DNA of 64,000 bases from an uncultured Acidimicrobiaceae bacterium. Its GTDB lineage: Bacteria > Actinomycetota > Acidimicrobiia > Spongiisociales > UBA5794. Under the pieces are notes generated by a model, which was not told the origin of the DNA, did no database searches, and worked only from the letters and a program-made list of their open reading frames with translations. Position numbers and translations under genes: made by a program. Below, piece after piece: positions 1 to 60,836 of this stretch (position 1 is its first letter; every line of letters starts with the position of its first letter). The stretch spans positions 14,612 to 78,611 of the forward strand of contig CAZOGW010000002.1 of NCBI GenBank assembly GCA_964579415.1, written 5' to 3'.

Positions 1-135
1 TTCGTCCTGGGCGATCAGCGGGCCCGCTCCGCCGACGACAGCCGCCACCTCGGCCCCGTGCCCACAGCCGGCATGTGGCGCGGCGTGGCCCGCTACTGGC
101 CGCCAGGACGTGTGGGACTCCTCTGAAGAACGGGA

Positions 136-163
136 GTACTTGGTACTTGGTACTTGGTACTTG
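136..163. repeat. Tandem heptamer array (GTACTTG)x4, followed by GGGGTGG; left arm of an inverted pair whose partner is at 819-846
   Basis: Read directly: gtacttggtacttggtacttggtacttggggg. The reverse complement occurs at 819-846. Confidence 0.9.
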
Positions 164-174
164 GGGGTGGAGAC

Positions 175-828
175 TCAATGGGATGATGCGTCGAGAAGGA
201 CGTCGATGGCGTGATGGGTCTCGCCCTCGAGCTGCACAGGGCGGGCGACTCGTTCCAGGCGGTCGATGTGGAGAGAGGCGAAGTCGGTGCGGAGTTGCTC
301 CTCGTCGTAGAGCACCTCGGGGATCTGGGGACCCCCCACACCCTCGGTGAGGTTGTCGCGGTGGTGAGCGACGAGGAACAGCCGGCCGCCGGGCGCGACT
401 GCCGCGGCGGCGCCCCGGTGGACCGACTCGCGTTGCGCCGGGACGAGTTGCAGGTACGACAGCAGCACCAGGTCGAAGGCCGCCGGCTGGGGTACCCACT
501 CCAGCAGGTCGGCGGCGACGGCATCGACGCGGAGACCGTTCTCGGTGGCGAGCCCACGCAGTCGGTCGATGGCCACGTCGGACAGATCGACGGCCGTGAC
601 GTCGTGGCCCTGCGCCGCCAGCCACAGCGAATTCCGGCCCTGTCCGGCCCCCAGGTCGAGCACCCGCCGCGGCTCGAGTCCGGACAGGCTCCCGGCGACG
701 AAGCGGTTCGGTTCCATGCCGAAAACGCTCACATCTTCGGAGTACCGCTCGTTCCAGTAGGCCCGCCGCTCGCCCGGCGTAGGCATCGTCCAACTCACCA
801 ACGAAGTATCCCACCCACCAAGTACCAA
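175..828 (-). CDS. Class I SAM-dependent methyltransferase, small stand-alone; the true start is probably internal near 784 (MPTPGERRAYWNERY)
   Basis: Motif VLDLGAGQGRNSLWLAAQGHDVTAVDLS (SAM-binding motif I with acidic residue after beta2) and a GGRLFL post-II motif. The ORF is bracketed by the inverted heptamer arrays. Confidence 0.75.
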   Translation of the reverse strand: MVLGGWDTSLVSWTMPTPGERRAYWNERYSEDVSVFGMEPNRFVAGSLSGLEPRRVLDLGAGQGRNSLWLAAQGHDVTAVDLSDVAIDRLRGLATENGLRVDAVAADLLEWVPQPAAFDLVLLSYLQLVPAQRESVHRGAAAAVAPGGRLFLVAHHRDNLTEGVGGPQIPEVLYDEEQLRTDFASLHIDRLERVARPVQLEGETHHAIDVLLDASSH

Positions 829-846
829 GTACCAAGTACCAAGTAC
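819..846. repeat. Tandem heptamer array (CAAGTAC)x4, the reverse complement of the 136-163 array; right arm of an inverted repeat flanking the methyltransferase gene
   Basis: Read directly: ccaccc-aagtaccaagtaccaagtaccaagtacc-tcc. Both arms carry a G/C-rich cap (GGGGTGG or CCACCC) on the inner side. Confidence 0.9.
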
Positions 847-966
847 CTCCCCATGTGACGATGCCTTGCCCTCCTGATGGAACCCACCCCCACCCCCATG
901 CGTCTCGCTTGTGGGTCTTCGCTACGAGTCCGGCGTCGTGAGCAACCACGGCACCACTAGCCTCCG

Positions 967-1521
967 GTGAAGCCCTTGGAAGGTGTAGGTGTGGACCGGG
1001 AAGTGACCGGTGCCCAGGCCACGGATAGTCGTGGCGGCCCGGCGGTGCAGAAGATCCGCGAGCTTTCGTTCGAGGACTACTACCGCAACCACCGGGACCG
1101 CATGTTCCGGGCGCTGGCGCTGACACTCGGTGACGTCGACCTCGCCGCCGACGCGGCGGACGAGGCGATGGTGCGGACGTACCAGCACTGGCGCAAGGTT
1201 CGGGACTACGGCAATCCGACGGGTTGGACTTACCGGGTGGGCCTCAACTGGGCACGTTCCCGGCTGAGGAAGGCGAAGAGGGAGCAGCTCGGCATCGTGC
1301 CGGAGACCGCCCGTCTCGATCCGGAAGGATCGGACCCGGTCCTGGTGGCGAAGGTGGCGGAGCTGCCGCTTCCCGCCCGCTCGGTGGTGGTCATGAGGTT
1401 TTACCTGCAGTGGTCCCATGAAGAGATCGCAGAGGCGTTGGACATACCGATCGGCACGGTGAAGAGCCGCCTTCACCGGGCCGTTGCCGACCTGCGGGGC
1501 AAGCTGGAGGTGGCGGAGTGA
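967..1521 (+). CDS. ECF-family RNA polymerase sigma-70 factor
   Basis: Region 2 (FEDYYRNHRDRMFRAL...YQHWRK) and region 4 HTH (VVVMRFYLQWSHEEIAEALDIPIGTVKSRLHRA). A 4-nt GTGA overlap joins it to the next gene. Confidence 0.85.
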   Translation: MKPLEGVGVDREVTGAQATDSRGGPAVQKIRELSFEDYYRNHRDRMFRALALTLGDVDLAADAADEAMVRTYQHWRKVRDYGNPTGWTYRVGLNWARSRLRKAKREQLGIVPETARLDPEGSDPVLVAKVAELPLPARSVVVMRFYLQWSHEEIAEALDIPIGTVKSRLHRAVADLRGKLEVAE

Positions 1522-3182: not shown

Positions 3183-3221
3183 TCACCGGTTAGACACCGG
3201 CCCCTCCTACACTCCGCCGCC

Positions 3222-4370
3222 GTGAACGCCTTCAACAAACTCATCGCCGCGCTCAAAGAGCTCCCGCCCGCCCGCCGCAACCTCCTCATCGGGCTCGGTG
3301 CCCTGGTGGTCGTGGTGCTCTTCGCCATCGTCTTCGCCCTCTGCAGCGGAGGGGACGACGCTCCCCCGACCACGACCACCACCACCGGTGCTCCCGTCAC
3401 CACGACGACCGCGGCCCCCACCACCACCGCAGAGAGCACGACATCCACCTCCACCACGGTCGCCGCCGGACCGGTGTCACAGCTCAACGGCCTCCCCACC
3501 GGGGAGGACACCGACCTGGATCGCAGGGTTGTTGCGGTGAAGGTCGACAACCACCCCGATGCCCGCCCCCAGTCCGGGCTGCAGGAGGCCGACGCCGTCA
3601 TGGAGCTCATCGTCGAAGGCGGGTTGTCACGGTTCATCGCCCTCTTCCACGAATCCGACAGCGAGTACGTCGGTCCGGTGCGGTCGGTGCGGCCCACCGA
3701 CCCCACGCTGGTACGCCCCCTCGACGCCGTCCTCCAGATCTCGGGCGGCCAGCCGTGGGTCCAGAACATCGTCAGCGGCGCCGGCGTCAACTTCCTCAGC
3801 GAGTCGGCCTCGAGCACCTTCCGCATCTCCGGCCGCAGCGCCCCCCACAACCTCTACGCCAGCACCCCCGCCATCCGCGAGCTGGCCGACGAGCGGGGTT
3901 GGCCCGACGAGCCGCCCGCCGACGGGGCATGGTTCACCTTCGGGACCCCGCCACCGGCCGACGCCACCGCCGAGACCGTGACCCTCGACTGGTCGTCGCA
4001 GCAGCCGGTGCCCGTGGTATGGCGCTGGGACGGCGAGCAGTACCTGCGCTCCTACGGCGAGACGCCTCACGAATGGGTCGATGCCGAGGGAGAGCGGGGC
4101 CAGATCGCCACCGACACCCTGGTGGTGCTCACCACCCCCCTCTACACCGCCTCCGGTAGCTCGGGCTCCTCGGTCCCGGCCCTGGAGACCACCGGCACCG
4201 GCACCGCCTACGTGTTCGTCGACGGGTCGGTCATCGAGGGCACCTGGCAGCGTGACGAGATCACCGAGGCGTTCTCGCTGACCACAGCCGACGGCGCCAC
4301 CATCGAGCTTCCCGCCGGCCGCCTCTGGGTCAGCGTGTTCCCCGACAGCCGGCCCGTCACCTGGGAATGA
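3222..4370 (+). CDS. DUF3048-family (YerB-like) membrane-anchored or lipoprotein with Thr/Pro-rich linker
   Basis: N-terminal TM or signal anchor with Cys (ALCSGG), a poly-Thr/Pro linker, then VVAVKVDNHPDARPQSGLQEADAVMELIVEGGLSRFIALFH, typical of DUF3048. Confidence 0.7.
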   Translation: MNAFNKLIAALKELPPARRNLLIGLGALVVVVLFAIVFALCSGGDDAPPTTTTTTGAPVTTTTAAPTTTAESTTSTSTTVAAGPVSQLNGLPTGEDTDLDRRVVAVKVDNHPDARPQSGLQEADAVMELIVEGGLSRFIALFHESDSEYVGPVRSVRPTDPTLVRPLDAVLQISGGQPWVQNIVSGAGVNFLSESASSTFRISGRSAPHNLYASTPAIRELADERGWPDEPPADGAWFTFGTPPPADATAETVTLDWSSQQPVPVVWRWDGEQYLRSYGETPHEWVDAEGERGQIATDTLVVLTTPLYTASGSSGSSVPALETTGTGTAYVFVDGSVIEGTWQRDEITEAFSLTTADGATIELPAGRLWVSVFPDSRPVTWE

Positions 4371-5960: not shown

Positions 5961-7831
5961 GTGGCGGAAGACACCCTTACCAAGCCCATCGATCGCGAGA
6001 AGCTCGACCGGGTCGTAATTCGATTCGCCGGCGACTCCGGTGACGGCATGCAGCTCGCCGGGACCCGCTTCACCGACGCGTCCGCCCTGTTCGGCAACGA
6101 CCTGGCGACTCTCCCCAACTTCCCCGCCGAGATCCGGGCCCCCGCCGGCACGCTACCCGGCGTGTCGTCGTTCCAGGTCCACATCGCCGACTGGGACATC
6201 CTCACCCCGGGCGACGAGCCCGACGTGCTGGTCGCCATGAACCCGGCGGCCCTCAAGGCGAACCTGGGCGATCTGCGCAAGGGCGGGCTGCTCCTGGTGA
6301 ACAGCGACGCCTTCGACGAGCGCAACCTCACCAAGGCCGGGTTCACCGGCAACCCCCTCGAGGACGGATCGCTGGAGGGCTACCACGTGCTCACCGCCCC
6401 GATGGAGGAGCTGACCAAGCTGGCGGTCGCCACCACCGGCCTCACCGGGCGGGGAGTGCTCCGCTCCAAGAACTTCTTCGCCCTCGGCCTGGTGTCGTGG
6501 ATGTTCAACCGCCCCACCGACACGGTGTTCGCCTGGCTCGACGAGAAGTTCGGTCCCGACGACGCGGTGGCCAAGGGCAACGCCGCCGCCTTCCGCGCCG
6601 GCTACAACTTCGGCATCACCACCGAGGAGTTCCACCACACCTACGAGGTGGAACCGGCCCGGCTCCCCGCCGGCGAGTACACCAACGTCACCGGCAACCA
6701 GGCGCTGGCGTGGGGCCTCATCGCCGCCGCCTCCTCGGTCCGGTTGCCGCTGTTCTATGGCTCGTACCCGATCACCCCGGCGTCGGGCATCCTCGAGGAA
6801 CTGGCCCGCCACAAGAACTTCGGGGTTCGCACCCTGCAGGTGGAGGACGAGATCGCCGCCGTCGGCGTCGCTCTGGGATCGTCGTTCGCCGGCCACCTCG
6901 GTGTCACCGGCACCAGCGGTCCCGGGGTCGCCCTCAAGTCGGAGACGATCAGCCTGGCGTTCCAGACCGAGCTGCCGCTCATCGTGGTCGACGTCCAGCG
7001 CGCCGGACCGTCGACCGGCATGCCCACCAAGGTGGAACAGGCCGACCTGCTGCTGGCGCTCTACGGCCGGCATGGCGAGGCGCCGCTCCCCGTGATCGCG
7101 GTATCGTCACCCAGCGACGCCTTCGAGACCGCCATCGAGGCGGTCCGCATCGCCGTCAACTTCATGACCCCGGTGATCCTGCTCTCCGACGGCTACATCG
7201 CCAACAGCTCGGAGCCGTGGAGCCTCCCCGACGTGGAGGCGATCCCCGACCACTCGGTGGCTTTCGCCGCAGCGGTCGAGGGCAGCGAGTTCCTCCCCTA
7301 CCGGCGTGACCCCGAGACGCTGGCCCGCCCCTGGGCCGTCCCGGGGACACCGGGCCTGGAGCACCGTGTCGGCGGTCTCGAGCACGAGGACGGCACCGGC
7401 AACGTGTCGTACGAGCCGCTGAACCACGAGGCGATGACCATCGTGCGCGAGAACAAGATGCGGGCGGTGGCCCGTTCCCTGCCGCCGCTCGAAGTATGGG
7501 ACCCAGACGGAGACGCCGACCTGCTGGTGGTGGGCTGGGGTTCGACCTTCGGCGCCATCCGCGCCGGCGTGCGTAACACCGCCAAGGCGGGCTACAGCGC
7601 CGCCCACCTGCACCTGCGCCACCTGTGCCCCCTGCCCGACGACCTGGGCGACGTCCTGGCCCGCTACGACCAGGTGCTGGTGCCCGAGCTGAATCGAGGT
7701 CAGCTGGTCAAAGTGCTGCGGGCGGAGTACCTGGTTCCCGCCATCGGCTACGGGAAGGTCCAGGGGCTGCCCTTCAAGGCGGCCGAGATCAGCCGCAAGA
7801 TCATGGAGCTCATCGACCACAAGGACGCACG

Positions 7832-8861: not shown

Positions 8862-9848
8862 GTGACGGCGGCGCCGCCGGTGTCGTGTGTCATCCCGGTG
8901 CGCAACGAGGCGCACAGCATCGCCGCCGCGGTGGAGAGCTGCCTGGATCAGACCTATCCCGGCCCCCTCGAGGTGGTGGTGGCGGACGCCATGAGCACCG
9001 ACGGCACCCGCGACGTGGTCACCCGGCTCGCCGGTGCCGACGCCCGGGTGCGCCTGGTGGACAACCCGACACGGGTCACCCCCGCCGGACTCAACGCCGC
9101 CATAGCCGTCGCCGGCGGTGAGGTGGTGGCCCGCTGCGACGCCCACGCCGTGCTGCCCTCCGACTACGTCGCCACTGCAGTGCGGCTCCTCGACGAGACC
9201 GGCGCCGCCTGCGTGGGAGGGGTGCAGCGGGCGGTGGGCGTGACGCCGGTACAGCGCGCCATCGCAGCCGCCATGTCGACGCCGATCGGCGTCGGTGACG
9301 CCCGCTTCCACTACGGCGGCGACCCGGGGCCGGTGGACACCGTGTACCTGGGAGTGTTCCGCCGGACCGCCCTCGACACCGTCGGCGGGTTCGACGAGCA
9401 CCTGCGACGCAACCAGGACTACGAGCTCAACCACAGGCTCCGCCTCGCCCAGGGGCCGGACGCGGTGTGGTTCGACCCCTCCCTCGGTGTCGAGTACCGG
9501 CCCCGTGCATCTCTGCGGGCACTGTGGAAGCAGTACTTCGACTACGGTATCGGCAAGCGGGTCATGCTGCGCCGCCATCCCCGCTCTCTGCGTTGGCGCC
9601 AGCTCGTCGCCCCTGCGTTCGTGGTGTCGCTGGCGGCGTCCGTCGTCGCCCTCGCCGTGGGCTGGACCGCACTGGGGCTGGTTGTCCCGCTGGCGTACGC
9701 CGCGGTGCTGGCGTTCGGCACCGTCGTAGAGCTGTGGCGCCGTCGCGACGCCGCCATGCTGGCGCTCCCCGCCGCCCTCGCCTCGATGCACACCGCCTGG
9801 GGCCTCGGCTTCTTGGGCGCCTCGCTCGATTCCCGATCCCGGCGGTGA
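8862..9848 (+). CDS. Family 2 glycosyltransferase (GT-A) with C-terminal transmembrane helices
   Basis: SCVIPVRNEAHSIAAAVESCLDQTY...EVVVADAMSTDGT (GT2 DxD context). Two or three hydrophobic helices at the C-terminus. Confidence 0.8.
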   Translation: MTAAPPVSCVIPVRNEAHSIAAAVESCLDQTYPGPLEVVVADAMSTDGTRDVVTRLAGADARVRLVDNPTRVTPAGLNAAIAVAGGEVVARCDAHAVLPSDYVATAVRLLDETGAACVGGVQRAVGVTPVQRAIAAAMSTPIGVGDARFHYGGDPGPVDTVYLGVFRRTALDTVGGFDEHLRRNQDYELNHRLRLAQGPDAVWFDPSLGVEYRPRASLRALWKQYFDYGIGKRVMLRRHPRSLRWRQLVAPAFVVSLAASVVALAVGWTALGLVVPLAYAAVLAFGTVVELWRRRDAAMLALPAALASMHTAWGLGFLGASLDSRSRR

Positions 9849-9972
9849 CCTCGGCCCCGAGCGGCCTCCTTGCCGAAACACCGGACAGCACGGATCCGTG
9901 TGCCGGATCAGGGTTGGGGTTGCTTTCCAGCACCGGTACGGTGTCCATACCGATCGGGAGGACGATCGAAGC

Positions 9973-11154
9973 ATGGATGTCCCCAAGGTGACAGCACGAA
10001 GCCGGACGCCGCGACACCTGCGGAGCCCCGTCGTGGCGGTGGGGCTGACGCTGGTCCTGGTGACGGCGATGTCGCTGGTGCGGGTGGCGCCGACGTTGGC
10101 GGCCGACTCGATCGCCACCCCGGACAGCGCCGGCGCATCCATCTCGCCGGCAGGCCGCGCTGCGCCGCCGCCGACCTGCAACGGCGTACCGGCAACGATC
10201 CTGGGCACGTCCGACAGCGAGTGGATCATCGGCACACCCGGCGACGATGTGATCCATGCCGGGGCAGGCGACGACTTCGTTTCCGGCGGAGGCGGCGACG
10301 ACATCATCTGCGGGGGCGCCGGCAACGACAACCTCCAGGGCGGCGAAGGTGAGGACGAGCTCCACGGTGGGGCCGGCAGCGACATCCTCCGAGGCGGCCC
10401 CGGCGCCGACAAACTGTGGGGCGGCGCCGGCGACGACAACATGTGGGGTCACCAGGACGACGACAGCATGTGGGGCGGCGCCGGCAACGACAACCTCCGA
10501 GGCGGGACCGGGGACAACCAGATCCACGGCGGTTCCGGCAACGACACCCTCAACAGTGGCTGGGGCAACGACGTGCTCTGGGGCGATTCCGGTAATGACC
10601 TCCTCAACGGCGGCGGCGGCAACGATTCCCTCCACGGCCAGGCGGGTGCCGACAGGCTCATCGGAGGCTCCGGCGACGACACACTCAGCGGAGGCGCCGG
10701 CGACGACAAGCTGTGGGGCCGCTCCGGAGACGACACCCTCAGCGGTGGCGCCGGTAACGACCTGCTCTACGGCGAGGAGGACACCGACACGCTCGACGGC
10801 GGGCGCGGTGACGACAAGCTGCGGGGCGGGCCAGGCAATGACGACCTCCGTGGCGGCATCGGCAACGACAAGCTGTGGGGTGATTCCGGCAACGACGAGC
10901 TCCGGGGCGGCAAGGGCAACGACATCCTCAGAGGCGGTACCGGGCACGACAAGCTGTGGGGCGGCGCCGGCAACGACACCCTCAACGGCTTCGCCGGCAA
11001 TGATCAGCTCTACGGAGAACCCGGCAACGACACCCTCAACGGCGGCGGCGACGACGACCGGCTTCGGGGAGGCCCGGGCAGGGACATCTGCAACGGCAAC
11101 CACGGCATCGACACCGCCGACAGCACCTGCGAGACGAAGACCGGCGTCCCCTGA
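9973..11154 (+). CDS. Secreted RTX (hemolysin-type Ca2+-binding nonapeptide) beta-roll repeat protein with no other recognised domain
   Basis: Good SD (gggagga) 13 nt upstream of the ATG and a Sec-type signal peptide (RHLRSPVVAVGLTLVLVTAMSLVRVAPTLAADS). About 30 GGxGxDxLx repeats, a CxxxxATIxGTxxDxxI N-cap and a C-terminal CNGNHGIDTADSTCETKTGVP cap. Confidence 0.85.
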   Translation: MDVPKVTARSRTPRHLRSPVVAVGLTLVLVTAMSLVRVAPTLAADSIATPDSAGASISPAGRAAPPPTCNGVPATILGTSDSEWIIGTPGDDVIHAGAGDDFVSGGGGDDIICGGAGNDNLQGGEGEDELHGGAGSDILRGGPGADKLWGGAGDDNMWGHQDDDSMWGGAGNDNLRGGTGDNQIHGGSGNDTLNSGWGNDVLWGDSGNDLLNGGGGNDSLHGQAGADRLIGGSGDDTLSGGAGDDKLWGRSGDDTLSGGAGNDLLYGEEDTDTLDGGRGDDKLRGGPGNDDLRGGIGNDKLWGDSGNDELRGGKGNDILRGGTGHDKLWGGAGNDTLNGFAGNDQLYGEPGNDTLNGGGDDDRLRGGPGRDICNGNHGIDTADSTCETKTGVP

Positions 11155-21123: not shown

Positions 21124-23520
21124 TCAGGGGATGCTCACCTTCACCTCGCATCTCGTCGCCGTGTCCGTGCCGGAGCCGCCGTGGCAGGTGTCGGTGTTGC
21201 CGCCTCCGCGGAGGTCGTCGGCGCCGCTGCCGCCGTACAGGGCGTCGGCGCCGGCTCCACCCCGGATCAGATCGGGACCGGCGTTCCCGTAGAGCGTGTC
21301 GTTCCCTGCCCCGCCGTCGACGGTGTCGCTGCCGTCGCCACCGCGCAGTATGTCGCCCCCGGCCTCCCCGTGAAGGGTGTCGTTACCCTTGCCTCCGTAC
21401 AGAAGGTCGTCGCCGGTGCCGCCGAGGATCAAGTCGTTCCCGGTGTTTCCCCAGAGGCGGTCATGCCCTCCCCCGCCGTGCAGGTAGTCGCTGTCGCTGC
21501 CGCCGCGCAACCGGTCGTCCCCTCCGGCACCACGGAGCGTGTCGCGACCTGTGCCGCCCCCCAGCTTGTCGTTCCCGGGACCCCCGTAGAGCAGGTCGGC
21601 GTCGGAGCCGCCGCTGATCTCGTCGTCGCCCCGCTGGCCGTAGAGCCGGTCGACCCCGCCCTCACCGTAGAGGCGGTCCTTGCCGGTGCCGCCGAGGATC
21701 AGGTCGTCGCCGACCCCGCCATGGATCGTGTCGGCTCCGCTCCCCCCGAAGACCACGTCGTTGCCGGGACCGGCGTAGACGCGGTCGTTGCCGGAGCCTC
21801 CGCAGATCACGTCGTTACCGCCGCGGCCGTGGATCACATCGTGACCCCGCCCCGCCCAGATGATGTCATTCCCCTTGGTGCCGTAGATGACGTCGTTGCC
21901 CGAGGTGCCCAGGATGGTGGCCCGCTCTCTGGTACACCACCACGCCTCGTTGTCGGCGGTGGCCGTATCGCACTTCCACCCGGCGGGGACGAACCACGAT
22001 GTCGGCGAGGCGCCAGGGATCGCCGTGTTGCCCAGGTACACGTCGAGGACGCCGTTGGTGCGGAGCAGGAACAGGTCGTCACGGCCGTCGCCGTCGAAGT
22101 CGTTGGCGAGGACGTCCGCCCAGGCGCCGGAGGCGGGCAGCGTCCTCGTCTCGTTGACTGTGCCATAGCCGTTGAGCAGGATGCGAACCTTGGCCCGGTC
22201 GATCGCATACAGGTCGGGCAGGTCGTCGACGTTGCGGTCGCCGAGGGTGAACTGCCACGAGCGAGTGTCGCCGAGCGGGGTTGCGGTGTCGGCGAGCTTG
22301 GACTTGTAGCCTCCCTTGCCGTTCCACACCTCGACCCGGGTGGCGGTCGCCGAACGGCGGATGACGAACAGGTCCTGCACGCCGTCGCGGTTGTGGTCTC
22401 CCAGCAGGTAGGCGGCGCCGGCCGAAGGCTTGACCGCGGTCGACAACTTCACGGTCTTCTTGAACTCCTTGGAGCGTAGAGCCACCTCCATCGCCACCGT
22501 GGAGCCTTTGCTGTCGATGAACCAGATGTCGGTGCGGCCGTGGCGCTCGTAGTCGGCGTAGGCGACCAGGCGACCACGCCGCGTCACCGCCGGCACCACG
22601 AACGACGAGGCGGCGCAGGCCCGGTGCAGTTGGTGGGTGCGGGAGAACTCCACCAGGAGGGAGGTGCCGGCGTCGCCCACCTCTACGACATCGGCGAGGC
22701 CGTTGCCGGTGAAGTCGGCCAACGCCTGCGGCTTGCCCGCCTCCGTGGGACCGATGGCGGCGACGTCGTAGGTGGCGGCGAGGGTGGTGAAGTTGGCCGG
22801 GCTGGTGGTGGGCGGGTACGGCTTGGGGACGGTGCCGTAACCCGGGGTGGCGTTGGGGCCCATCCAACTGAAGTGCATGGTGTCCTTGATGTCCATCCAG
22901 TCGCCGCCCCAGCAGAACCCGGCGTCGCGCCACGCCTGGACGAACCAGTCCGGCATGTCGGTGATCTTCGTGTTGTCGGAGCGGTAGGGGTTGGTGGTCC
23001 AGTTGATGTCGATGGTGGCGCCGAAGGTGTGGTTGGAGATGCTGAAGGAGCCACCCACCGTGCGCGGCACGTAGGTGGCGGTATCGCCGCTGCGGATGCG
23101 GTAAGGCTTACCGGGATTGGCGGCGGCAGCGGCGACGAGGTTGGCGCCTGCCTTCTGGAACGCCGGGAGCGCCCGCTCGTGGACCCTCACCACCTTGCCG
23201 CCGCTCAGCGGCACGGTCCAGTTGACCAGTTCGCTCGAGAGCTGGCCGATGGTGCGCCCGAAGAAGTCGCCGCGGTACCCGCGTATCCGGTCCGGCGACG
23301 ACAGCGGGCCGGAGCGGGTATGGAGCGGGTTCGACGTCGACGGGGGGCCGCAGCCCGCCGACTCGTTGAAGGAGGGGAACCCGCCACCTTCCCCGGCGAG
23401 TCCTTCCCCCAGCCCGTCGCCATGCGCCGGGTGATAACCCTCATGCTCGGGGGGGATCGGGTCGTCCGCAGGCTGGGACCAGGCCGGAGGCGCCGTCATC
23501 GTCACCAGGCCGAGCGCCAT
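21124..23520 (-). CDS. Secreted three-part protein: LAS/M15-like (VanY-type) D,D-peptidase domain, FG-GAP/VCBS repeats, then C-terminal RTX beta-roll
   Basis: Signal-peptide-like MALGLVTMTAPPAWSQP; the ORF is open further upstream, so the start is uncertain. Peptidase-like region SGDTATYVP...HTFGATIDINW...DTMHFSW. FG-GAP motifs (DFTGNGLADVV, GDHNRDGVQDLFVI, NDFDGDGRDDLFLL). About 25 GGxGxD repeats and a terminal CHGGSGTDTATRCEVKVSIP cap. Confidence 0.7.
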   Translation of the reverse strand: MALGLVTMTAPPAWSQPADDPIPPEHEGYHPAHGDGLGEGLAGEGGGFPSFNESAGCGPPSTSNPLHTRSGPLSSPDRIRGYRGDFFGRTIGQLSSELVNWTVPLSGGKVVRVHERALPAFQKAGANLVAAAAANPGKPYRIRSGDTATYVPRTVGGSFSISNHTFGATIDINWTTNPYRSDNTKITDMPDWFVQAWRDAGFCWGGDWMDIKDTMHFSWMGPNATPGYGTVPKPYPPTTSPANFTTLAATYDVAAIGPTEAGKPQALADFTGNGLADVVEVGDAGTSLLVEFSRTHQLHRACAASSFVVPAVTRRGRLVAYADYERHGRTDIWFIDSKGSTVAMEVALRSKEFKKTVKLSTAVKPSAGAAYLLGDHNRDGVQDLFVIRRSATATRVEVWNGKGGYKSKLADTATPLGDTRSWQFTLGDRNVDDLPDLYAIDRAKVRILLNGYGTVNETRTLPASGAWADVLANDFDGDGRDDLFLLRTNGVLDVYLGNTAIPGASPTSWFVPAGWKCDTATADNEAWWCTRERATILGTSGNDVIYGTKGNDIIWAGRGHDVIHGRGGNDVICGGSGNDRVYAGPGNDVVFGGSGADTIHGGVGDDLILGGTGKDRLYGEGGVDRLYGQRGDDEISGGSDADLLYGGPGNDKLGGGTGRDTLRGAGGDDRLRGGSDSDYLHGGGGHDRLWGNTGNDLILGGTGDDLLYGGKGNDTLHGEAGGDILRGGDGSDTVDGGAGNDTLYGNAGPDLIRGGAGADALYGGSGADDLRGGGNTDTCHGGSGTDTATRCEVKVSIP

Positions 23521-23720
23521 GGCAATCCCCACTACCCGCCGGCCACCACGGCGCAGTCCTTGATGAAGCTGTCGGCTCGTCACCCAGGCGAGGCTAACCC
23601 AGGTGGCGATATAGGCGACTTCCTCGCGGGCAGGCCCGTGCCCGGAAGCGGTTACTCCACGATGCCCTCCCCTGCCACTACAATCCACCCGCCGCCGCCG
23701 GGCCATCCCCCGGGAGAACG

Positions 23721-26700
23721 ATGCACCGTTTCTTCAAACCTGCCATCCGCCCACTTCTGGAGGCGACGAAGCCTTCTCTGGTGGTGGAGATCGGCAGCGA
23801 CTGGGGCCACGGCACCGAACTGCTCGCCACCTGGTGCCACGCCAACGGGGCTGCCCTGCACATCGTGGACCCGCTCCCCAAGTACGACGTGGACGAGTGG
23901 GCGCAGCGATGGCCGGGATCCGTCACCTTCCACCTGGACTTGTCGCTCAACGCACTGGTCGATCTCGACGCCCCCGACATGGTGTGCATCGACGGAGACC
24001 ACAACTGGTACACGGTGTACCACGAGTTGGAGCTCCTGGCACGCTCGGCCAGCGAGGCGGGGCGCCCCTTCCCGCTGACGCTGTTCCACGACGTGGCATG
24101 GCCCTACGGCCGCCGCGACCTCTACTACGACCCGGCCACGATCCCCGAGGCTCACCGCCATCCCTACCGCAAGGGAGGGCTGGTCCCCGGCCAGCGAGCG
24201 CTGACGGAGAGCGGCTTCAACGACCATCTCGACAACGCCCTCCACGAGGGGACGCTCCGCAACGGGGTTCGCACCGCCGTCGAGGACTTCGTCGCCGACC
24301 GCCCGCACCTGGCGCTCCACGTCGTTCCCGGCCTGCATGGACTCGGCATCGTCGTCGACGACGCCGCCGATGCGGCCGTGCACGAGGCCATCGCCGACGT
24401 CACCGGCCCAAGCGGGCTGATGCGGGTGATCGAAGCCGTCGAGGAGGACCGGCTGGCACGGCTGCAGAGGCTGTCCGAGATGCAGAAGGAACTCGTGCAG
24501 GAACGGGAGCGCGCCGGGCGGACCCGGGCCGAGGCTGCGCACCACGCCGAGCGGGCAGAGGCGCTGGCGGCACAGGTGAGTGCGCTCGGCGAGAACCTCG
24601 CCGAGGCGCGGGCACAGGCCGCGGAACTGGAGACCCTCCTCACACGGACCCGGCTCCGGGTCAGGAAGGAGAAGCGGCTGGCGGCGAGACGGCAGCGAGC
24701 ACTCGACAAGAAGGTCCGGGCGCTCGACAGGTCCCAGCGGTCGCTCGCCACCGTCCGCAGCAGGCTCGATGCCGCCGAGGCGGAGTCACGTGCCCTCAAG
24801 CGTCGGCTCGGGGCTGCCGAGGCCGACTACTCGCGGCTCCGCAACCGGCGCTCGGTGCGCCTCACGTTGCGGATGGCCTCCCTGTTCCGCCCGCTCTTCC
24901 GGCTTCGCCGCGGCCAGGGGTCCCGCAAGACGTCGACGCCGGCGACGTCGGCACGGGACGACGGCGCCAAGGAGGGCAAGCCAGGTAGCCGACCGCCCGC
25001 CGGGGCGACCGCGCCCGCCGACCCGGCGCCCGTAAGGCTGACGCCGTCGACCGCCGCAGCAGCACAGCCATCGCCGGAGGCCGCCGGCCGGCGCCGTCCA
25101 CGACGGATCAGGTCGCCCCGGGCAGCCCGCGCCGGCCGGGCTCTCTGGGCGGGCTTCGGCGGCATCGCCTCCGCCGAACTGGACAAGCTGGTGCAGGCAC
25201 GGCACGACTCCCCCGCCGAGGCTTCCCGTGCCGCCCTGGAACTGGCCAGGTGGTGGCGCTACCACGGCGACCTCGACAGGGCGCTGGACCTGGCTCGCCT
25301 GAGCCGGGCGGCACGGCCTGACGCCCCCTGGTCACGGGACGGGCAGTTCCTCGAAGCAGACGTCCTCCACGAATTGGGGCTTGCCGAAGAGGGCCGGTAC
25401 CTGCTCGACCACATGCTGGAGGGGGCACCCGACGACCCGCACCTGTTGTTGCGCCTTGCCAACACCTTCGCCTCACCGGCGGGGCCTGCCGGCGATCGGG
25501 ACGACCTGACCCGGCTCGCCATCATCAATCAGGTCCTCGCCAACGCCGGGCTGTCTTCCCTCCGTCTCGCCGACGCCGGCAGGGGTTTGCGCATCGACAA
25601 CCTCGCCGGGACCGGCCCCGAGCCGGTGCCGCACCAGGGCCCGGAGCCGCTGGTGTCGGTGGTCGTCCCGGCGTTCAACGCCTCCGACTGGTTGGCGACC
25701 TCGGTCGGTTCCATCCTGGCTCAGACTTGGCCGCGGATCGAGGTCGTCATCGTCGACGACGCCAGCAGCGACGGGACCGTCGAGGTGGCGCAGGAACTGG
25801 CAGCCCGGGATCGGCGGGTCCGGGTGCTCCGGCAATCGACCAACCGGGGCGCCTACGCGGCACGCAACCGGGGGGTGGCGTCGGCAACAGGCGACTTCGT
25901 CACCGTCAACGACTCCGACGACTGGTCCCACCCGGAGCGCATCGCCCGCGAGGTGCGGGCCCTGGTGGACGATCCCGACATCGTGGGTGTGATGCCCCAC
26001 CGCAGCCGCGTCACCGCCGATCTGGTGTTCATCGAGCCCACGGTGCGGTCCCGCCCCGAACGGGTCATCCCCGACATCTCGTCGCTGATGGTGCGCCGCG
26101 CCACCCTCGAAGAGGTGGGGCCGTGGGACGAGGTCCGCGCCGCCGGCGACCACGAGTTCGGCAAGCGGCTCGAGGCGTACTACGGCCCGGAGGCGGTGTT
26201 ACGTATCCATCCCGAGGCGCCGATGTCGCTCTCCCTGCGCCTCCCCGAGTCGATCTCGGCGGCGGGAGCGACCTCCATCCTCTCCCGGCATCACGTCATC
26301 GGGGCTCGGCGTCTCTACCACCAGGCGCTGGCACACTGGCACGACTCGCCGTCGTTCCGGGAGTCGCTGCCGTTCCGACCGGGAGAACCGCGACCCTTCC
26401 CCGCGCCGCGACCGATCACCGACGGGGATCCGGGCGGCACCCGAACCCGTCCCGACCTGGTGTTCCTCTCCGACTTCACCCCGTCCGGGGCCACCGCCGC
26501 CGCCGTCGAGGAGCTGGCGGCACAGTCGTCGGCCGGGCTTACGACGGCGCTCGTCCACAACCCGTCCTACCACGGGCGCTTCCTCGACCCCATCAGCGCC
26601 CGGGTCTGGGACGCCGCCGGCAGCACCGCCCTGCTGCTCGGCAAGGACGAGCGGATCGACACCGATCTCCTCGTCATCCGGGATCCCTGGATCGCCGAGC

Positions 26701-27529: not shown

Positions 27530-27553
27530 CACTGGCTACTGGCTACTGGCTAC
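27530..27553. repeat. Tandem heptamer array (ACTGGCT / GGCTACT)x3 in a convergent intergenic region
   Basis: Read directly: ccactggctactggctactggctacgcc. Confidence 0.85.
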
Positions 27554-36971: not shown

Positions 36972-37495
36972 CGCCGTCCCCGGGCGCCACCCCTGCGGAG
37001 GCGCCGGGGGACGTCGAGGATGCGCGCCATCCGCCGGCCGAGCCGGTAGCTCCGGGAGGCACGGATGGCGTCGAGCTCGGACTGACGTAGTCGCGCCTGC
37101 TCCCGGGCCTGGCGCAGGCGGCGGCGTGAGCGGGCGAGTTGCTGCGTCAGCTCCTCGGTCTGGATGCGTGCCTCGTCTTCGATCTCGTCGATGCGCGCCC
37201 AGAAGAGGTCGACGTGCCCTTCCAGTCGCAAGACTTCGCCTTCGACGGCGCCCAGCGTCCGTGCCGAGGCCTCCAGCTTCGCCTCGAGCTCCGCATTGGC
37301 GGCGGTCAGCTCAGTCACCCGCCGCGCAGCGGCTTCGCCGGCCTCGATGAGTTCAGCGATCTGCCGACGCAGGTCCCGGATCTCCCGTTCCGCCTCGGCA
37401 GCTGCGGCGACGTCCGCCGCCGTCGCCACGTGGACCCTCTCTTCGGGACCGTCGTCATGAGCCATCGCAGCCGTTCTGTCGTGTGGTAGCGCCAC
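36968..37495 (-). CDS. Small coiled-coil protein (hypothetical)
   Basis: Continuous heptad-like Ala/Glu/Arg-rich helix (EREIRDLRRQIAELIEAGEAAARRVTELTAANAELEAKLE...); no enzymatic motifs. A 4-nt overlap with the downstream gene supports expression. Confidence 0.45.
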   Translation of the reverse strand: MALPHDRTAAMAHDDGPEERVHVATAADVAAAAEAEREIRDLRRQIAELIEAGEAAARRVTELTAANAELEAKLEASARTLGAVEGEVLRLEGHVDLFWARIDEIEDEARIQTEELTQQLARSRRRLRQAREQARLRQSELDAIRASRSYRLGRRMARILDVPRRLRRGGARGRR

Positions 37496-37512
37496 ATCGG
37501 GGAGGATACAGG

Positions 37513-37542
37513 GTTGGGATCGTTGGGATCGTTGAGATCGGC
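37513..37542. repeat. Short tandem 9-mer repeat (GGGATCGTT x2 plus a GAGATCGG variant) in a divergent promoter region
   Basis: Read directly: ggttgggatcgttgggatcgttgagatcgg, between 37495 (start of a minus-strand gene) and 37664 (start of a plus-strand gene). Candidate operator. Confidence 0.6.
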
Positions 37543-37663
37543 TTCCCGGTGCCAGCCACGGGACTCACCGACGTCACGGCAGGAGGATCGGTTGCCGAGG
37601 CGACGCGTGATACCGTCGCTCTGTGACATCCGGTACCGGCCACGACCAGGACATCCGCCGAGC

Positions 37664-38599
37664 ATGATGCGGTGCCCGGTATGTGGCCGGTTGACCCGCT
37701 CGCGGAGCTATCCCTTCCTCAACGTGGGCCGGCACCGGCATCCGACCTTCGACGGCCGGCACCTGTCGGCCTGCTCCCGGTGCGACTCGATGTGGTGCAC
37801 CGACGCGCCCACCAACGGCGAGCTGGGCGACTACTACGCCACCAGCTACGTCCCGGCGAGAATGGGCGAGGCCGACAAGGACACCTGGCCCATCTGGGAT
37901 ACCCGGGCGTACTCGCAGATCATGCTGGCTCGCCTCTTCGTCGACTGGGCACCGGGAGACCTGTTCGTCGACGTGGGCCCGGGCAACGGTGCCGCCCTCT
38001 CCGTGGCGCCGCTGCTGCTGCGGGACGCCCACCTCGGATGTGTCGAGTTCAATCCCCACGCCATCGAGTTCTTCCGCCGCCACGTTCCCGACATCACGGT
38101 CACCGAGTCGATCGAGGAGTTCGCCCCGGGTTCGGCCAAGATGGTCTACAGCGCCCACAGCCTCGAGCACTACCGCCCCGGCGACGCCTTCGACGGTCTG
38201 CGCGGCATCGCCCGGGCCCTGGCGCCGGGCGGTGTCCTGGCGCTGGAGGTGCCGTGGGCCCCATCGGCCCGTACCATCGCCGCCGGACGCCACACCCCCC
38301 ATCTGTTGTTCTTCTCGCCCCAGGGCCTGCAGCGCCTGCTCACACGTGCCGGTTTCGAGGTGGTGTTGTGGTTCACCTCGCGGGGACGGCGCGGCAACCG
38401 TGACGCGGTGGCGGACCACCCGGTTCCCCCGGACCTCGGTCGTGGCCTCGCCGCCCGCCTCTCCACCTTTGTCACCGGCGACCTGATGGCCTCGGTCCCC
38501 CGCGACGGCCAGCCCATCAAAGGTGTCATCAAGGTCGTGGCCGTCAACGGCGGGCGCCGCCTGATCGGCGGTCAGGCAGATGCCAGCAGGATGCGGTAG
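37664..38599 (+). CDS. Class I SAM-dependent methyltransferase with an N-terminal Cys4 zinc-ribbon
   Basis: CPVCG...CSRCDSMWC zinc ribbon; motif I LFVDVGPGNGAAL; post-II GGVLALEVP. Its 3' end overlaps the convergent ADH gene by 28 nt. Confidence 0.7.
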   Translation: MMRCPVCGRLTRSRSYPFLNVGRHRHPTFDGRHLSACSRCDSMWCTDAPTNGELGDYYATSYVPARMGEADKDTWPIWDTRAYSQIMLARLFVDWAPGDLFVDVGPGNGAALSVAPLLLRDAHLGCVEFNPHAIEFFRRHVPDITVTESIEEFAPGSAKMVYSAHSLEHYRPGDAFDGLRGIARALAPGGVLALEVPWAPSARTIAAGRHTPHLLFFSPQGLQRLLTRAGFEVVLWFTSRGRRGNRDAVADHPVPPDLGRGLAARLSTFVTGDLMASVPRDGQPIKGVIKVVAVNGGRRLIGGQADASRMR

Positions 38600-42195: not shown

Positions 42196-44964
42196 TCAGG
42201 TGATCTCGAACGGGGAGGGGATCGGGTAGAGGGAATCGAGGAGCGAACGAACCACCGCCGCCTGGCGGGCGTGGTCGATGTCGGTGTGGAGGGTGGCGTT
42301 GAGGCAGAAGTACGTCGGCCGCCGCGACACGATGTCGTGGACTCGCCGCGCCATGTCGGCCCGACCGGTGTCGAGATACACGTAGGCGCCGGACGGCTGC
42401 GGCCACTCCACCGCGGCGCCGGTGGCGACGCCGTAGAAGTGGGCGAACATGCTGGGGATGGCCAGGTCGGTGGCCGACCTGAACCGGGCGGCCCTGGTGC
42501 GGGTGTACTCCTCCGGGTAGCGGCGTTCCATCTCCTCCAGCACGGAGCGGCGCAGGGCGTGGGGGATGTGCTGGACCTTGCGGTCGAAGCGGATGCCGAA
42601 GTCCCGGGCGATGATGTCGGAGGCGTTGTAGGCGGCCCAGTCGGTGGGGATCGCGTCGGGACCCGGTCGCCCCTCGTAGATGTACTGGGTGGGGGCGAAC
42701 CGCACCTTGCTCAACCCGGCACGGGTGAAGAAGTCGTCGACGGTCACCTCCCGGCCCAGGAACACGTCGTCGTTGAAGTAGAGGAAGTGCTCTGCGACGC
42801 CGGGTACCCGGTGCAGGTTGGCCTCGATGGCCTGCGAGTTGAAGGTGGGCAGCACCGACGGGTCGGGGAAGACGTCCCGGTGGGATACCACCGAGATGCG
42901 CTCGTCGGAGGTGTCCAGCCAGGCCGGCACCTGGTCGGCGGTCACCAGGTGGATGTGGCGGACGAACGGGGCGTACATCCACACCGACCGCAGCGAGTAG
43001 CGCAGCTCGTCGCGGTCGATGAAACGCTCGGCGTTGTCGGCGCTGGTGAGCGAGGTTCCACCCGCACCGCTGTGGGCGGCATGGGCGCGGCGCCATTCCG
43101 GGTCGGCCGGGTCGACCCAGGTGTAGACGACGTCGACCTCGCCGACGGTGTGGTGGCGGCCGACGGAGCTCACCGGCCGGGTCGGGGGCGGTGCCCCCTC
43201 CAGCAGCTCGGGGAACTCTGCCGTCCAGTCGACTCGGGCGGCGCGTGGCTCCACTGTGATGACCCGCTGCTTGGCGGGAACCGGCGCCACGAACATCACC
43301 CCGAGGCCCTGCACGCGGGCGGCGCCCTGCGGGAGACCGCCCGGGGCCGGCCCGACGGCGATCGATCGGGCCGGGAAGAGGTCCTCGAAGGTGACGGTGC
43401 CCATACCGACCATGCGGGACCTGCGGTCGCCCCCCGCCAGGTGAACCACCAGCCCCGGGTAGTCCCGGCCCACCGCCACCAACACGTCACCGAGCATGCG
43501 CTTGTCCCGCTCGGCCACGGCGCACAGCGGCCTGCCGTCGACCTCGGCGACGGCAAAGGCGAGCCCGGCCTCTTTGGCCGCCGTGGCGAGGACGGCGGCC
43601 AGCGCACGGCGTTGCCGGTCCGGGGTGGCGCCGAGGGCCTTCACCACGGGAGGCACGGCGGGCGGCCTCGGAGAGGCGGCGCCGTCCGCCGCGGTGCCGG
43701 CTGCGGGCGTGCCGTCCGCCAGCTCGTCGACCTCCCGCTTGCGGGCCACCTGCAGGATGTCGTGCCACGTCTTGAGCAGCCGCGCCTCGATGCGGGGGTA
43801 GCGAGTCATGGTAAGGCGGGCGCGCTGCTTGGCGCGAAGGGTGACGTCGCCGATGCCTTTGGGCCGGCCGGCACGGAGGCGGCTGTTCTGCCGGGAGAGG
43901 TGGCGATTCTCCGTCTCGAGGCGGCGGTTGCGCCCCATCAGCTCCCTGGTGCGTGCCCGCACCTGCCAGCGGGCGAAGTCGTAGGGTTCGCCGTTGTCGA
44001 TCAGATCGACGATGGCGTCGGCGCACGCTCTCCCTGCCGTCCCGTGGTTGACGAAGAAGCGGTCGACGAAGCCGCGGTAGGCGGCGTCATCGGCGAGCCG
44101 GCTGCGGGCCTCGGCGACGGCATCGTCGAGGGGGCGGCCCGACTCCCACACCACGCCGAGGCCGGCCAGGTGGGAACGGTCGATGTCGGCGGCGGAGAGC
44201 CGGTGGTAGTCCTCCGCCTCGGGATCGGCGTCGCCCACCAGGACCAGCGGCCGCCGGGCGTAGAGGGCATCGAAGGCGGCGCCGGAGAAGTCGGTGATGA
44301 CGAAGTCGGCGGCGCCGATCAGTTCGGCGGGCGAACGGTCGGCGCCGACCAGGCTGCAGTTGGGGGGAAGGATTCCGGCGGCGCGGGGGTCTTCGGCGTG
44401 GTGGAGTTTCACGCTGATCTCGACGGGGAGGCCGGAGAGGCGGCGGCCCACCGCCTCCAGCGAGGACAGCGACCCGTAGGTGGGCAGGTAGAGGCCCTTC
44501 GCCGATCCGCCCTGTGGCGCAGGCGGCAGTCCCCCGGCGAGAAGCTCGTCGAACAGGGGGTTGCCCACGGCCCGGGCGTGGGCGAACCCGGCAACCCGGT
44601 CCACCGAGTACGGCCCGTACATGAGATTGGCGTTGGCCAGGGAGCGCCACACGCCGTACTGGTAGGTCTCCTTGCCCAGGCTGTACTGCTGCGCAACCAC
44701 CAGCGACCGCTCCAGGAGGGCGTTGGGGAGGACCGGCGTCTGGCACACGATCACATCGAAACGGCCGTCGAGGGTCCGCAGATGCTGCTTGGGGACCCAT
44801 TCCACGGTGGCGGCGGGCAGGTGTGCCCGGATGAAGGCCTCATCGACCTCGAAGTCACGGTCGCGCGTCTCAATGACGAACGTCGACGCCCCCAGCGCGG
44901 CCGCGATGGGTCGGTAATGGTGGACCTGATACCGGTTGGTGATGAGGAATGCGATACGTGTCAT
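42196..44964 (-). CDS. Fusion of a TagF-like glycerophosphotransferase-family domain, a coiled-coil linker, and a C-terminal Stealth (CR1-CR4) hexose-1-phosphotransferase domain
   Basis: TagF-like: [13 protein letters not shown]...[14 protein letters not shown]. Stealth CR1-CR4: [46 protein letters not shown]...[32 protein letters not shown]. Confidence 0.8.
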
Positions 44965-45075
44965 CGTCCGCTGCGCGAGTCGAACCGGCGGCCAGACCAG
45001 GGGGATCCACCGGGGGAAACCCCGAGTTTACCTCAGCGTCATTTCCAAGGCATCATCATGCGGCGTCCGCTCACG

Positions 45076-46785: not shown

Positions 46786-47539
46786 ACGCTGCGAGCACCT
46801 CGTCCACCGTCCCGTCGAGATGGATCTTCCCCTGCTCGAGCCACATGGCGCGGCTGCACGTGGCCCGAATCTCGTTCATGTTGTGCGTCACCATGACGAT
46901 GGAGCCGGCGTTGGCCTGCAGGTCCCGGATCCGAGCCATGCTCTTGCGTTTGAAGGTACGGTCACCCACCGCCAGCGCCTCGTCGATGAACAGCAGCTCG
47001 GGTTGCTGCAGCGTGGCGATGGCGAACGCCAGCCGCGCCCTCATCCCCGACGAGTAGGTGCGCAGCGGCCGCCTCAGGGCCTCGCCCAGCTCGGTGAAAT
47101 CGGCGACTTCCTCGATGCTCTCGCGGATCTCGCTCATCGGCATTCCCATGGCGAGGCAGCCGATTGTGATGTTGCGGTAGCCGGACAGCTCCGGCTTGAG
47201 GGCTGCCCGCACCGTGAGCAGCACCGGCTCGGAGCGGACCAGGACCGACCCCGATGTCGGTTGCAACAGGCCGGCGAGGGCACGCAGCAGCGTGCTCTTG
47301 CCCGACCCGTTGGAGCCGACGATGCCGACCACCTCGCCGACGTCGATCTGGAACGTCACTCCCTTGACCGCGTGCACCTCGTCGGAGACGCGGCTGCGGA
47401 AGCCCCCGCTCATCATCCGGCGCAGGGTGAACGATTGCTCCTCGTAGACCTTGAACCGCACGTGGATGTCGTCCGCCACGATGGCCGGTGTCCCGGTGGC
47501 GATGCTCCGCTCGGTGACGACGGCGCGCTCAACTGCCAT
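46769..47539 (-). CDS. ABC transporter ATP-binding protein of the polysaccharide/teichoic-acid exporter type (TagH/KpsT/Wzt-like, no C-terminal carbohydrate-binding extension)
   Basis: Walker A GIVGSNGSGKST, signature YSSGMRARLAFA, Walker B LLFIDEA, and the H-loop. Overlaps the permease gene by 11 nt. Confidence 0.85.
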   Translation of the reverse strand: MAVERAVVTERSIATGTPAIVADDIHVRFKVYEEQSFTLRRMMSGGFRSRVSDEVHAVKGVTFQIDVGEVVGIVGSNGSGKSTLLRALAGLLQPTSGSVLVRSEPVLLTVRAALKPELSGYRNITIGCLAMGMPMSEIRESIEEVADFTELGEALRRPLRTYSSGMRARLAFAIATLQQPELLFIDEALAVGDRTFKRKSMARIRDLQANAGSIVMVTHNMNEIRATCSRAMWLEQGKIHLDGTVDEVLAAYDSQE

Positions 47540-52600: not shown

Positions 52601-52653
52601 CCTCACGATTCTACCGGGGGCTGCGCGAAGCCCGAGCTTTGTGCAACGCGGGG

Positions 52654-60835: not shown

Positions 60836-60836
60836 G

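Follow-up and report, generated by a model that had tools for sequence, protein, structure and literature searches.

Near the left end of a 64,000-nucleotide stretch of DNA from an uncultured Acidimicrobiaceae bacterium (assembly GCA_964579415.1, contig CAZOGW010000002.1, forward-strand positions 14,612 to 78,611; hereafter, the window), a minus-strand gene for a class I S-adenosylmethionine (SAM)-dependent methyltransferase lies between the 3′ end of an S26 signal-peptidase gene and a gene for an extracytoplasmic function (ECF) sigma factor, and the 7-base unit GGTACTT forms two runs of about 30 bp in opposite orientations on either side of it. The left run (array a1) is located between convergent gene ends, 9 nt past the peptidase stop codon (TGA, 124–126), and the methyltransferase stop codon (TCA, 175–177 on the plus strand) follows 10 nt beyond it. 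The right run (array a2) is located in a divergent region, 18 nt upstream of the methyltransferase GTG codon and 143 nt upstream of the sigma-factor start. The bracketed unit (136–847) spans 712 bp and contains one gene. An earlier note on this DNA (the preliminary description), which had reported a unit of about 710 bp bounded by inverted (GTACTTG)n arrays, placed both arrays correctly.

A repeat search returned this pair as a 32-nt inverted repeat with arms at 136–167 and 815–846, which are 97% complementary and 647 nt apart. The 14-mer (GTACTTG)2 occurs 10 times in the window, compared with 0.00 expected from 100 dinucleotide-preserving shuffles. The G/C caps that had been described on the inner sides of the arrays are real (GGGGTGG after the left array, CCCACCC before the right array), and a 4-nt match (GGGA/TCCC) continues the repeat outside a1 and a2. 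When a1 is read on the plus strand and a2 on the minus strand, the common flanks are GGGA on the outside and GGGTGG(-/G)A(G/T)ACT on the inside.

The explanation that the arrays are assembly or vector artefacts, which the preliminary description had itself raised, has next to no probability. Short repeats can be mis-assembled in metagenome bins, and nothing else speaks in its favor; a2 is not the artefact of one assembler, because an independent Logan assembly of run SRR16798009 (contig L157) starts inside a2 and carries the same flank over the stretch read, with its first 200 nt matching window positions 825–1010. In addition, a related genome (L104, see below) has an array at the orthologous site, and such arrays are present in more than 103 loci from many independent metagenome-assembled genomes (MAGs) and isolates. 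As a separate observation, the assembly of this near-identical genome breaks exactly within the a2 array (L157, 1–23), as is expected if array k-mers are repeated in the genome; this break leaves short-read graphs unable to phase which way round the bracketed methyltransferase gene lies.

The gene order around the methyltransferase is conserved in related genomes. In all five related lineages (L104, L108, L105–107, L155, and L156, with 77%, 78%, 66%, 61%, and 66% identity to the window methyltransferase, respectively), the gene adjoins an S26 peptidase gene, beyond which nickel superoxide dismutase (Ni-SOD) is encoded wherever the contig reaches, and a gene for an ECF sigma factor or a DUF3048 protein is located on its other side. 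In L105–107, L108, L155, and L156, as in the window, the methyltransferase gene is convergent with the peptidase gene. These four lineages have kept the methyltransferase and lack the arrays, and no heptamer array was found in about 41 kb of five outgroup loci (L105–107, L155, L156).

In L108, the peptidase, the methyltransferase, and the sigma upstream region have the order and orientation of the window, with no array at either site. At the a1 site, only 9 nt (gctagaaga) separate the convergent stop codons and there is no proto-repeat. At the a2 site, the leader reads GGGGAtcggatgcTGGGATACT in L108 vs GGGGA[(GGTACTT)4GGTGGG]TGGGATACT in the window, so that a2 occupies the place of 8 nt (tcggatgc). 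Both a2 flanks, GGGGA and TGGGATACT, are present in L108 without the array and are therefore ancestral, and a proto-repeat (GGATGCT GGGATACT) is found at this site. The search for empty sites in relatives that the preliminary description had called for is answered by this genome, which is empty at both array positions and still has the gene. The convergent gap of L155 holds a repeat of a different type: its methyltransferase–peptidase intergenic region of 163 nt (L155, 900–1090) contains two to three copies of a motif of about 20 nt (gaaccttaggttggccgg) and no heptamer arrays.

The preliminary description had read the unit at 136–847 as a mobile element, either a cassette or a miniature inverted-repeat transposable element (MITE), with the methyltransferase as cargo. 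A 32-nt inverted repeat that bounds a compact 712-bp single-gene unit is what would be expected of such an element, but the comparison of relatives makes this reading highly improbable, as the gene is a syntenic resident of five related lineages, four of which lack arrays, and the empty sites lack the arrays only. No target-site duplication, for which a check had been suggested, is found adjacent to the arrays: the outer flanks (...aacGGGA and TCCCCatg...) continue the inverted repeat without a direct repeat, and those of a2 are ancestral. No second copy of the unit was detected; a protein search returned one identical entry (P0001, on one contig), a metagenome scan with the methyltransferase returned nothing above 45% identity, and no bracketing pair was seen among the array loci collected from other genomes. 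Of the properties of MITEs, terminal inverted repeats are present, though the arms are simple-sequence arrays; a target-site duplication, non-coding content, multiple copies of the whole unit, and empty sites lacking the whole unit are not observed.

Domain searches of the window point in the same direction. Among about 42 window open reading frames (ORFs) scanned against Pfam, no recombinase, transposase, or integrase domain was found, so the association with a recombinase gene that had been proposed for checking is not seen in the window. With respect to an integron cassette, there is no integrase-family Pfam match in these ORFs and no Rfam match, attC sites not having been searched with a dedicated model. 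A scan of the whole window at Rfam gathering thresholds gave no match, and a scan for tRNA and tmRNA genes found none, which leaves the window without an integration-site signature.

The enclosed ORF matches Methyltransf_25 at 1e-16, in addition to TehB and TPMT, which confirms the class that had been assigned to it. The length of 217 amino acids given previously does not hold: it corresponds to the maximal frame, the opening codons of which extend into the array, whereas homologues begin with MSWTMPTP, corresponding to GTG 798 (207 amino acids), and an identical database protein begins at ATG 786 (203 amino acids). The protein is thus probably 203–207 amino acids long, with GTG 798 as the probable start codon. 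The leader that contains TGGGATACT is ancestral sequence and not part of the terminal repeat, because it is conserved in array-less L108. A hexamer resembling a -10 element (GATACT), located 6 nt before the start codon, is conserved in the window and L108; it may be the -10 element of a leaderless or near-leaderless mRNA, which would put a2 outside the methyltransferase transcript. Scans of window positions 1–1200 detected neither a sigma-70 promoter consensus nor intrinsic terminators.

In L104, the methyltransferase (77% identical) has the opposite orientation between the same two neighbors. BLAST aligns window 1–101 with L104 1541–1641 (forward), window 132–797 with L104 2330–1678 (reverse), and window 817–1106 with L104 2297–2585 (forward), which places both breakpoints within a few bases of the array positions of the window. 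The L104 orientation is the derived one, because the four other lineages have the orientation of the window. A single array, (GTACCTA)2(GTACCAA)2GTACC, remains in L104 on the sigma side of the gene, with the position and orientation of a2 relative to the sigma upstream region. The L104 methyltransferase reads into this array and ends at a TAG stop codon inside it, resulting in a changed C-terminus (L104, 2295–2327). On the peptidase side, only about 11 nt of the methyltransferase leader is kept (GGGGACACGCG vs GGGATACTTCGTTG in the window), and the GATACT motif is decayed. The gene now starts 10 nt downstream of the peptidase stop codon, on the same strand, so that the inversion plausibly moved it into the peptidase transcription unit, with a possible consequence for its regulation.

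The idea of an excision or inversion substrate in the preliminary description is thus borne out for inversion, as the gene is flipped in L104 with both breakpoints at array positions. The recombination system that had been suggested to shuffle modules through the arrays is unproven; what is documented is one evolutionary inversion and not a system. Another explanation is a programmed invertible switch, in which a site-specific or otherwise dedicated recombinase encoded elsewhere would act on the arrays, so that the methyltransferase is expressed either from its own promoter or together with the peptidase. The segment is bordered by inverted repeats, the gene is found both ways round in related genomes, with the breakpoints falling at the arrays, and the position of the L104 gene 10 nt behind the peptidase, with its GATACT motif decayed, would fit the co-transcribed state. 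However, there is no recombinase within 64 kb, L104 has lost one arm and is no longer switchable, and protein sequences differ by about 24% between the genomes with opposite orientations, which fits a rare fixed event. Moreover, no other gene-bracketing inverted pair is listed among 103 array loci. Nothing in the analysis demonstrates a programmed switch, and this explanation is quite improbable.

Taken together, a1 and a2 are probably lineage-specific intergenic heptamer repeats, and not the ends of a mobile element, with a history of birth of a2, appearance of a1 as its inverted copy, and inversion of the gene in L104. First, a2 would have arisen in place in the methyltransferase–sigma intergenic region, as is suggested by its ancestral flanks and by the proto-repeat in array-less L108. 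Second, a1 would be an inverted duplicate of a2 that was placed at the other end of the gene and took some flank along, about 4 nt on the outside and about 11 nt on the inside; this direction of copying is suggested by the ancestral state of the a2 flanks and by the L108 sequence at the a1 site, which consists only of gctagaaga. Third, the resulting 32-bp inverted repeat, with arms 647 bp apart, could serve as a substrate for inversion through homologous recombination or replication template switching. Fourth, in the L104 lineage, the gene would have been inverted at the array positions, after which the peptidase-side array was presumably lost, possibly through the GGGA...GGGA microhomology around it. 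Finally, the original stop codon in L104 would have decayed, leaving the gene to end at the TAG inside the remaining array. Polymerase slippage may have made and resized the arrays.

Several points weigh against this history. The inverted state is known from one relative only, in which the second array is missing, so that a further step of loss must be assumed, and the order of events cannot be rooted, as the three close genomes are about equidistant (76–79% protein identity). Past the arrays, the a1 and a2 flanks resemble each other over a short, G-rich distance (about 4 + 11 nt), and GGGGA also precedes the 52655 and 52713 arrays, so that the resemblance could reflect a preference for sequence context and not copying. 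Slippage alone leaves the dominance of one unit family (GGTACTT, GGTACTA, GGCTACT) in the window unexplained.

One alternative is that a1 and a2 arose independently by slippage and bracket the gene by chance, the inversion in L104 being unrelated. The arrays are dense in the window (five sites in about 48 intergenic regions) and occupy all intergenic contexts, and by a rough calculation the chance that two of three same-unit sites are neighbors is about 0.13. The two arrays nevertheless share an identical unit, similar lengths, and common flanks, the a1 site in L108 has no proto-repeat, and both L104 breakpoints fall at array positions within a few bases; chance bracketing is accordingly rather unlikely.

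Other routes to the present arrangement were considered. A model in which a hairpin pair of arrays is split by an inversion was rejected when worked through by hand, because it predicts direct and not inverted arrays. A staggered-break inversion that was later reversed could also have led to it, but two inversions would have had to share identical breakpoints. A more far-reaching proposal is that the arrays of this lineage are not passive products of slippage; an unrecognized heptamer-specific DNA transaction would make them and copy them along with some adjacent bases, frequently in inverted orientation, and inverted pairs would then flip the genes between them, perhaps in a way that is still reversible within the population. 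This proposal is doubtful; if true, it would amount to repeat-driven rewiring of gene orientation and operon membership. Inverted duplication of arrays may be a recurrent process, as is suggested by the 52655–52713 pair and by analogy with the close inverted pairs of Xanthomonas (see below), and template switching at the replication fork might lie behind it.

Table 1. Positions of the arrays, their flanks, and the genes next to them, in the window unless a contig is named.
Feature	Position	Strand	Remarks
Left heptamer array a1, (GTACTTG)4.1	136–164	+	Exact tandem, 100% matches
Right heptamer array a2, (GGTACTT)4.4, reverse complement of a1 unit	817–847	-	100% matches
a1 outer flank GGGA	132–135	+	Matches GGGGA before a2 (minus strand) and before the 52655 and 52713 arrays
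a1 inner flank, GGGGTGGAGAC-like cap	165–174	+	Resembles a2 inner flank GGGTGGGATAC; not in L108 here
Methyltransferase, class I SAM-dependent (TehB/TPMT-like)	175–798	-	Pfam, homologues, synteny
Methyltransferase 5′ leader with TGGGATACT	799–816	-	Kept in array-less L108; putative promoter role
S26 signal-peptidase gene 3′ end (sodX-like)	1–126	+	Conserved left neighbor; Ni-SOD upstream in relatives
ECF sigma factor	991–1521	+	176 amino acids per database entry; conserved right neighbor
(GGCTACT)3.3	27531–27553	+	Between convergent genes: plus-strand gene stop 27482, long minus-strand ORF ending 27598
Two inverted (GGTACTT)3.6 arrays	52655–52679, 52689–52713		9 nt apart, perfect hairpin
(AGGTACT)3.7	60837–60862	+	Fills gap between two convergent genes
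GGGGA/GGGA/GCGGA array flanks	132–135, 848–852, 52650–52654, 52714–52718; L104 2328–2331
Abutting arrays of different units	L020 1578–1631, 5348–5400; L101 1862–1913; L077 2791–2851; L079 3691–3759

Exact period-7 arrays number six in the window, at five intergenic sites, and make up 6 of its 10 exact short-period arrays. The related arrays that the preliminary description had placed at three other junctions are all present (Table 1). The inverted pair at 52655–52713 is located between the rmlD stop codon and the start of a same-strand Bac_transf sugar-transferase gene, and region 52640–52728 folds into a hairpin of about -61 kcal/mol (z = -11) with a stem of at least 28 bp, which may act as a terminator, a stabilizer hairpin, or a cruciform. 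The self-structure of the single arrays is not significant. For a test of hairpin conservation, no RmlD homologue above 67% identity was found. The GGTACTT arrays of the window lineage (four in the window and the L104 array by the methyltransferase) are preceded by GGGGA, GGGA, or GCGGA; these shared G-rich flanks suggest either copying of arrays with their flanks or a preference for a G-rich context. Conserved flanks of GGTACTT arrays across genomes, which would be expected for a mobile element, were not found outside the lineage of the window.

In the window, at 60833–60862, the TAG stop codon of a minus-strand SpoIID-domain gene lies inside the (AGGTACT) array. Together with the L104 methyltransferase, this gene indicates that arrays supply stop codons and so remodel the 3′ ends of genes. 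The same SpoIID-domain gene also contains tandem coding repeats of 192–198 nt with 79–91% matches (60868–61617).

Heptamer arrays are widespread beyond this lineage. The sequence (GTACTTG)3 is present at more than 103 loci in bacterial contigs sampled as one genome per species, in several Acidimicrobiia MAGs as well as in Acidobacteriota, Planctomycetota, Bacteroidota, and others; the array loci that were fetched (L001–L103) come from many independent MAGs and isolates, and the genome of the window is not among them. In 822 kb of sequence (the window and the fetched loci), there are 175 exact period-7 arrays, and still 57 once the selected unit is removed, whereas period 4 accounts for 15 and each of the remaining periods up to 13 for six or fewer. 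GGTACTT itself had been considered as a special unit spread over phyla. This idea is weakened by a permuted control heptamer, for which viral contigs contained 24 arrays, compared with 6 for GTACTTG. Because the control heptamer is the commoner, the general phenomenon is that of heptamer arrays and not of the GTACTTG unit.

Restriction of the arrays to one type of gene junction was rejected, as all contexts are used with only a mild convergent excess. According to crude gene calls based on G+C content at third codon positions, the arrays of high-GC loci are located between convergent (12), tandem (22), and divergent (6) genes (n = 40), compared with 57, 199, and 66 background gene pairs, respectively (n = 322). 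Among the period-7 arrays of the fetched loci and the window that are separated by over 200 nt from a selected GGTACTT array, 12 of 21 contain ACT/AGT (units such as TGGCACT, CGGCACT, GGCCACT, GGCTACT, CGCTACT, ACGGACT, and AGGTACT), against a rough chance estimate of about 20% for a sample that is small and non-independent, and viral contigs commonly carry a permuted control unit that lacks ACT. Inspection of the listed positions and strands of the 103 array loci revealed direct pairs and close hairpin pairs, and no other inverted pair that brackets a gene.

Two further observations concern the fetched loci. In a Bacteroidetes MAG (L070), two GGTACTT arrays (3221–3247 and 7270–7296) with identical 25-nt flanks on both sides are directly repeated 4049 bp apart, which looks like a duplicated segment of about 4 kb or a repeated element that carries an array. 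Arrays of different units often abut each other in tandem or inverted, GGTACTT being found beside GGTATTT, GGCCACT, GAGGGGC, or GAGCCTT (Table 1), which suggests mutation and re-expansion in place or hot spots of array formation.

The arrays might alternatively be selected cis-elements, serving as protein- or RNA-binding sites or as structures at transcript ends. In one version, a1 and a2 are co-transcribed and form a 32-bp long-range RNA duplex around the gene, for example as a target of RNase III; in another, the 52655–52713 pair acts as a terminator or stabilizer hairpin. The stability of this hairpin, the slight enrichment of sites between convergent genes (12/40 vs 57/322), the dominance of one unit family in the window, and the frequency of ACT/AGT in the independent arrays are all consistent with selection of this kind. 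On the other hand, a single array does not fold significantly, the scans returned neither an Rfam match nor a terminator-like site, relatives with the same genes lack the arrays, and every intergenic orientation class contains some. The permuted control heptamer formed as many or more arrays in viral contigs, and the conserved motif resembling a -10 element downstream of a2 suggests that a2 is outside the methyltransferase mRNA. Selected cis-elements are therefore an unlikely explanation.

The properties of a1 and a2 instead resemble those of short tandemly repeated repetitive (STRR) sequences: perfect head-to-tail 7-nt units, several intergenic arrays, an excess of period 7, and rapid gain, loss, and change of unit, as is illustrated by the absence of arrays in L108 and the outgroups and by the variant units (GTACCTA)2(GTACCAA)2 in L104. 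The two arrays appear to belong to a lineage-specific population of intergenic heptanucleotide simple-sequence repeats.

The G+C content of the window is 69.8%. Elsewhere in the window, the ORFs scanned comprise core genes (DUF3048, amidase, 2-oxoacid:ferredoxin oxidoreductase), followed by a large cell-surface glycosylation cluster. Within this cluster, four genes (9730–11154, 21124–23733, 48568–49929, and 58728–60371) encode proteins with many calcium-binding nonapeptide repeats of the repeats-in-toxin (RTX) type; polysaccharide-deacetylase domains are fused to two of them, and an M15 peptidase domain to one. The cluster also contains two Stealth-family genes (42196–46875). A 9-nt in-frame tandem repeat, (GTTGGGATC)3.1, is located at 37513–37540, at the 5′ end of an ORF with a methyltransferase domain (37490–38599).

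Tandem repeats of heptanucleotides were recognized in bacteria decades ago, as cyanobacterial STRRs, as GGGAATC in Xanthomonas, and as TAACTGA in Beggiatoaceae. The locus described here reveals no new mobile element or recombination system, but is a clear case of repeat-associated gene inversion in this known repeat class. It permits a rare comparison of three states: no arrays, two inverted arrays around a gene, and the gene inverted with one array left. This comparison shows gain of an array in conserved intergenic DNA and possible inverted duplication, and represents a natural experiment on how heptamer repeats arise, duplicate, and rearrange genes. As a concrete structural consequence, the arrays mark the breakpoints of an inversion that would have moved a gene into the neighboring transcription unit.

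Among known systems, MITEs resemble the present unit in having terminal inverted repeats that bound a sub-kilobase unit, but they do not enclose a complete conserved gene, and the target-site duplications, the many unit copies, and the empty sites lacking the whole unit that characterize them are missing here. In switches of the hin, gin, and fimS type and in shufflons, invertible segments are driven by site-specific recombinases. The present locus is similar to hin/gin/fimS switches in having a short segment bordered by inverted repeats and in the occurrence of either orientation among relatives; it differs in that no recombinase is adjacent, the arms are simple-sequence arrays and not defined crossover sites, and the inverted relative has lost one arm. 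Inversions between short inverted repeats, with inverted duplications at the breakpoints, are explained by staggered-break and fork template-switch models. The breakpoints in the present case likewise lie at inverted repeats, and one arm looks as if it had been copied, flanks included, from the other in inverted orientation, whereas the arms consist of tandem heptamers and extend over no more than about 30 bp, and the mechanism is a putative one.

The STRR heptamers of heterocystous cyanobacteria, reportedly described by Mazel et al. in 1990, share with the present arrays the tandem arrangement of heptamers in non-coding DNA, the presence of several unit families per genome, and an unexplained function and origin; the taxon and the units are different. 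In the literature searched, no report of gene inversion was found for STRRs. The TAACTGA repeats of marine Beggiatoaceae, some Cyanobacteria, and Bacteroidetes are similarly an abundant intergenic heptamer, each set of which holds two to six copies (169 sets in Beggiatoaceae), and the same unit occurs in distant phyla with no evident mechanism of transfer (PMC4679880). Most TAACTGA sets are located just upstream of start codons, for which a translational role has been proposed, and a single indirect repeat has been reported (PMC4679880), whereas the arrays described here are mostly found at gene 3′ ends and in convergent gaps.

The closest counterparts are the heptamer repeats of Xanthomonas and Nostoc. 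X. campestris has 186 GGGAATC repeat sites, most with four units, including 70–75 close inverted pairs, and these sites are commoner between convergent than between divergent ORFs; polymerase slippage has been hypothesized for such repeats (PMC4692102). GGGGA(C/T)T repeats are described in Nostoc in the same source, which also mentions Calothrix PCC 7601 and cites a report from 2007 that heptamer repeats are over-represented in many bacteria (PMC4692102). Like these repeats, the arrays of the window consist of perfect head-to-tail 7-nt units in about four copies, are intergenic with one unit family dominant per genome, form close inverted pairs, are more frequent between convergent than divergent genes, and vary in length and presence between relatives. 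They differ in having a GGTACTT-like unit with GG runs only, for which stable G-quadruplexes are unlikely, and in their host, so that they extend the known bacterial heptanucleotide repeat class to a high-GC, Acidimicrobiia-like lineage in which one inverted pair spans a whole gene that is flipped in a relative.

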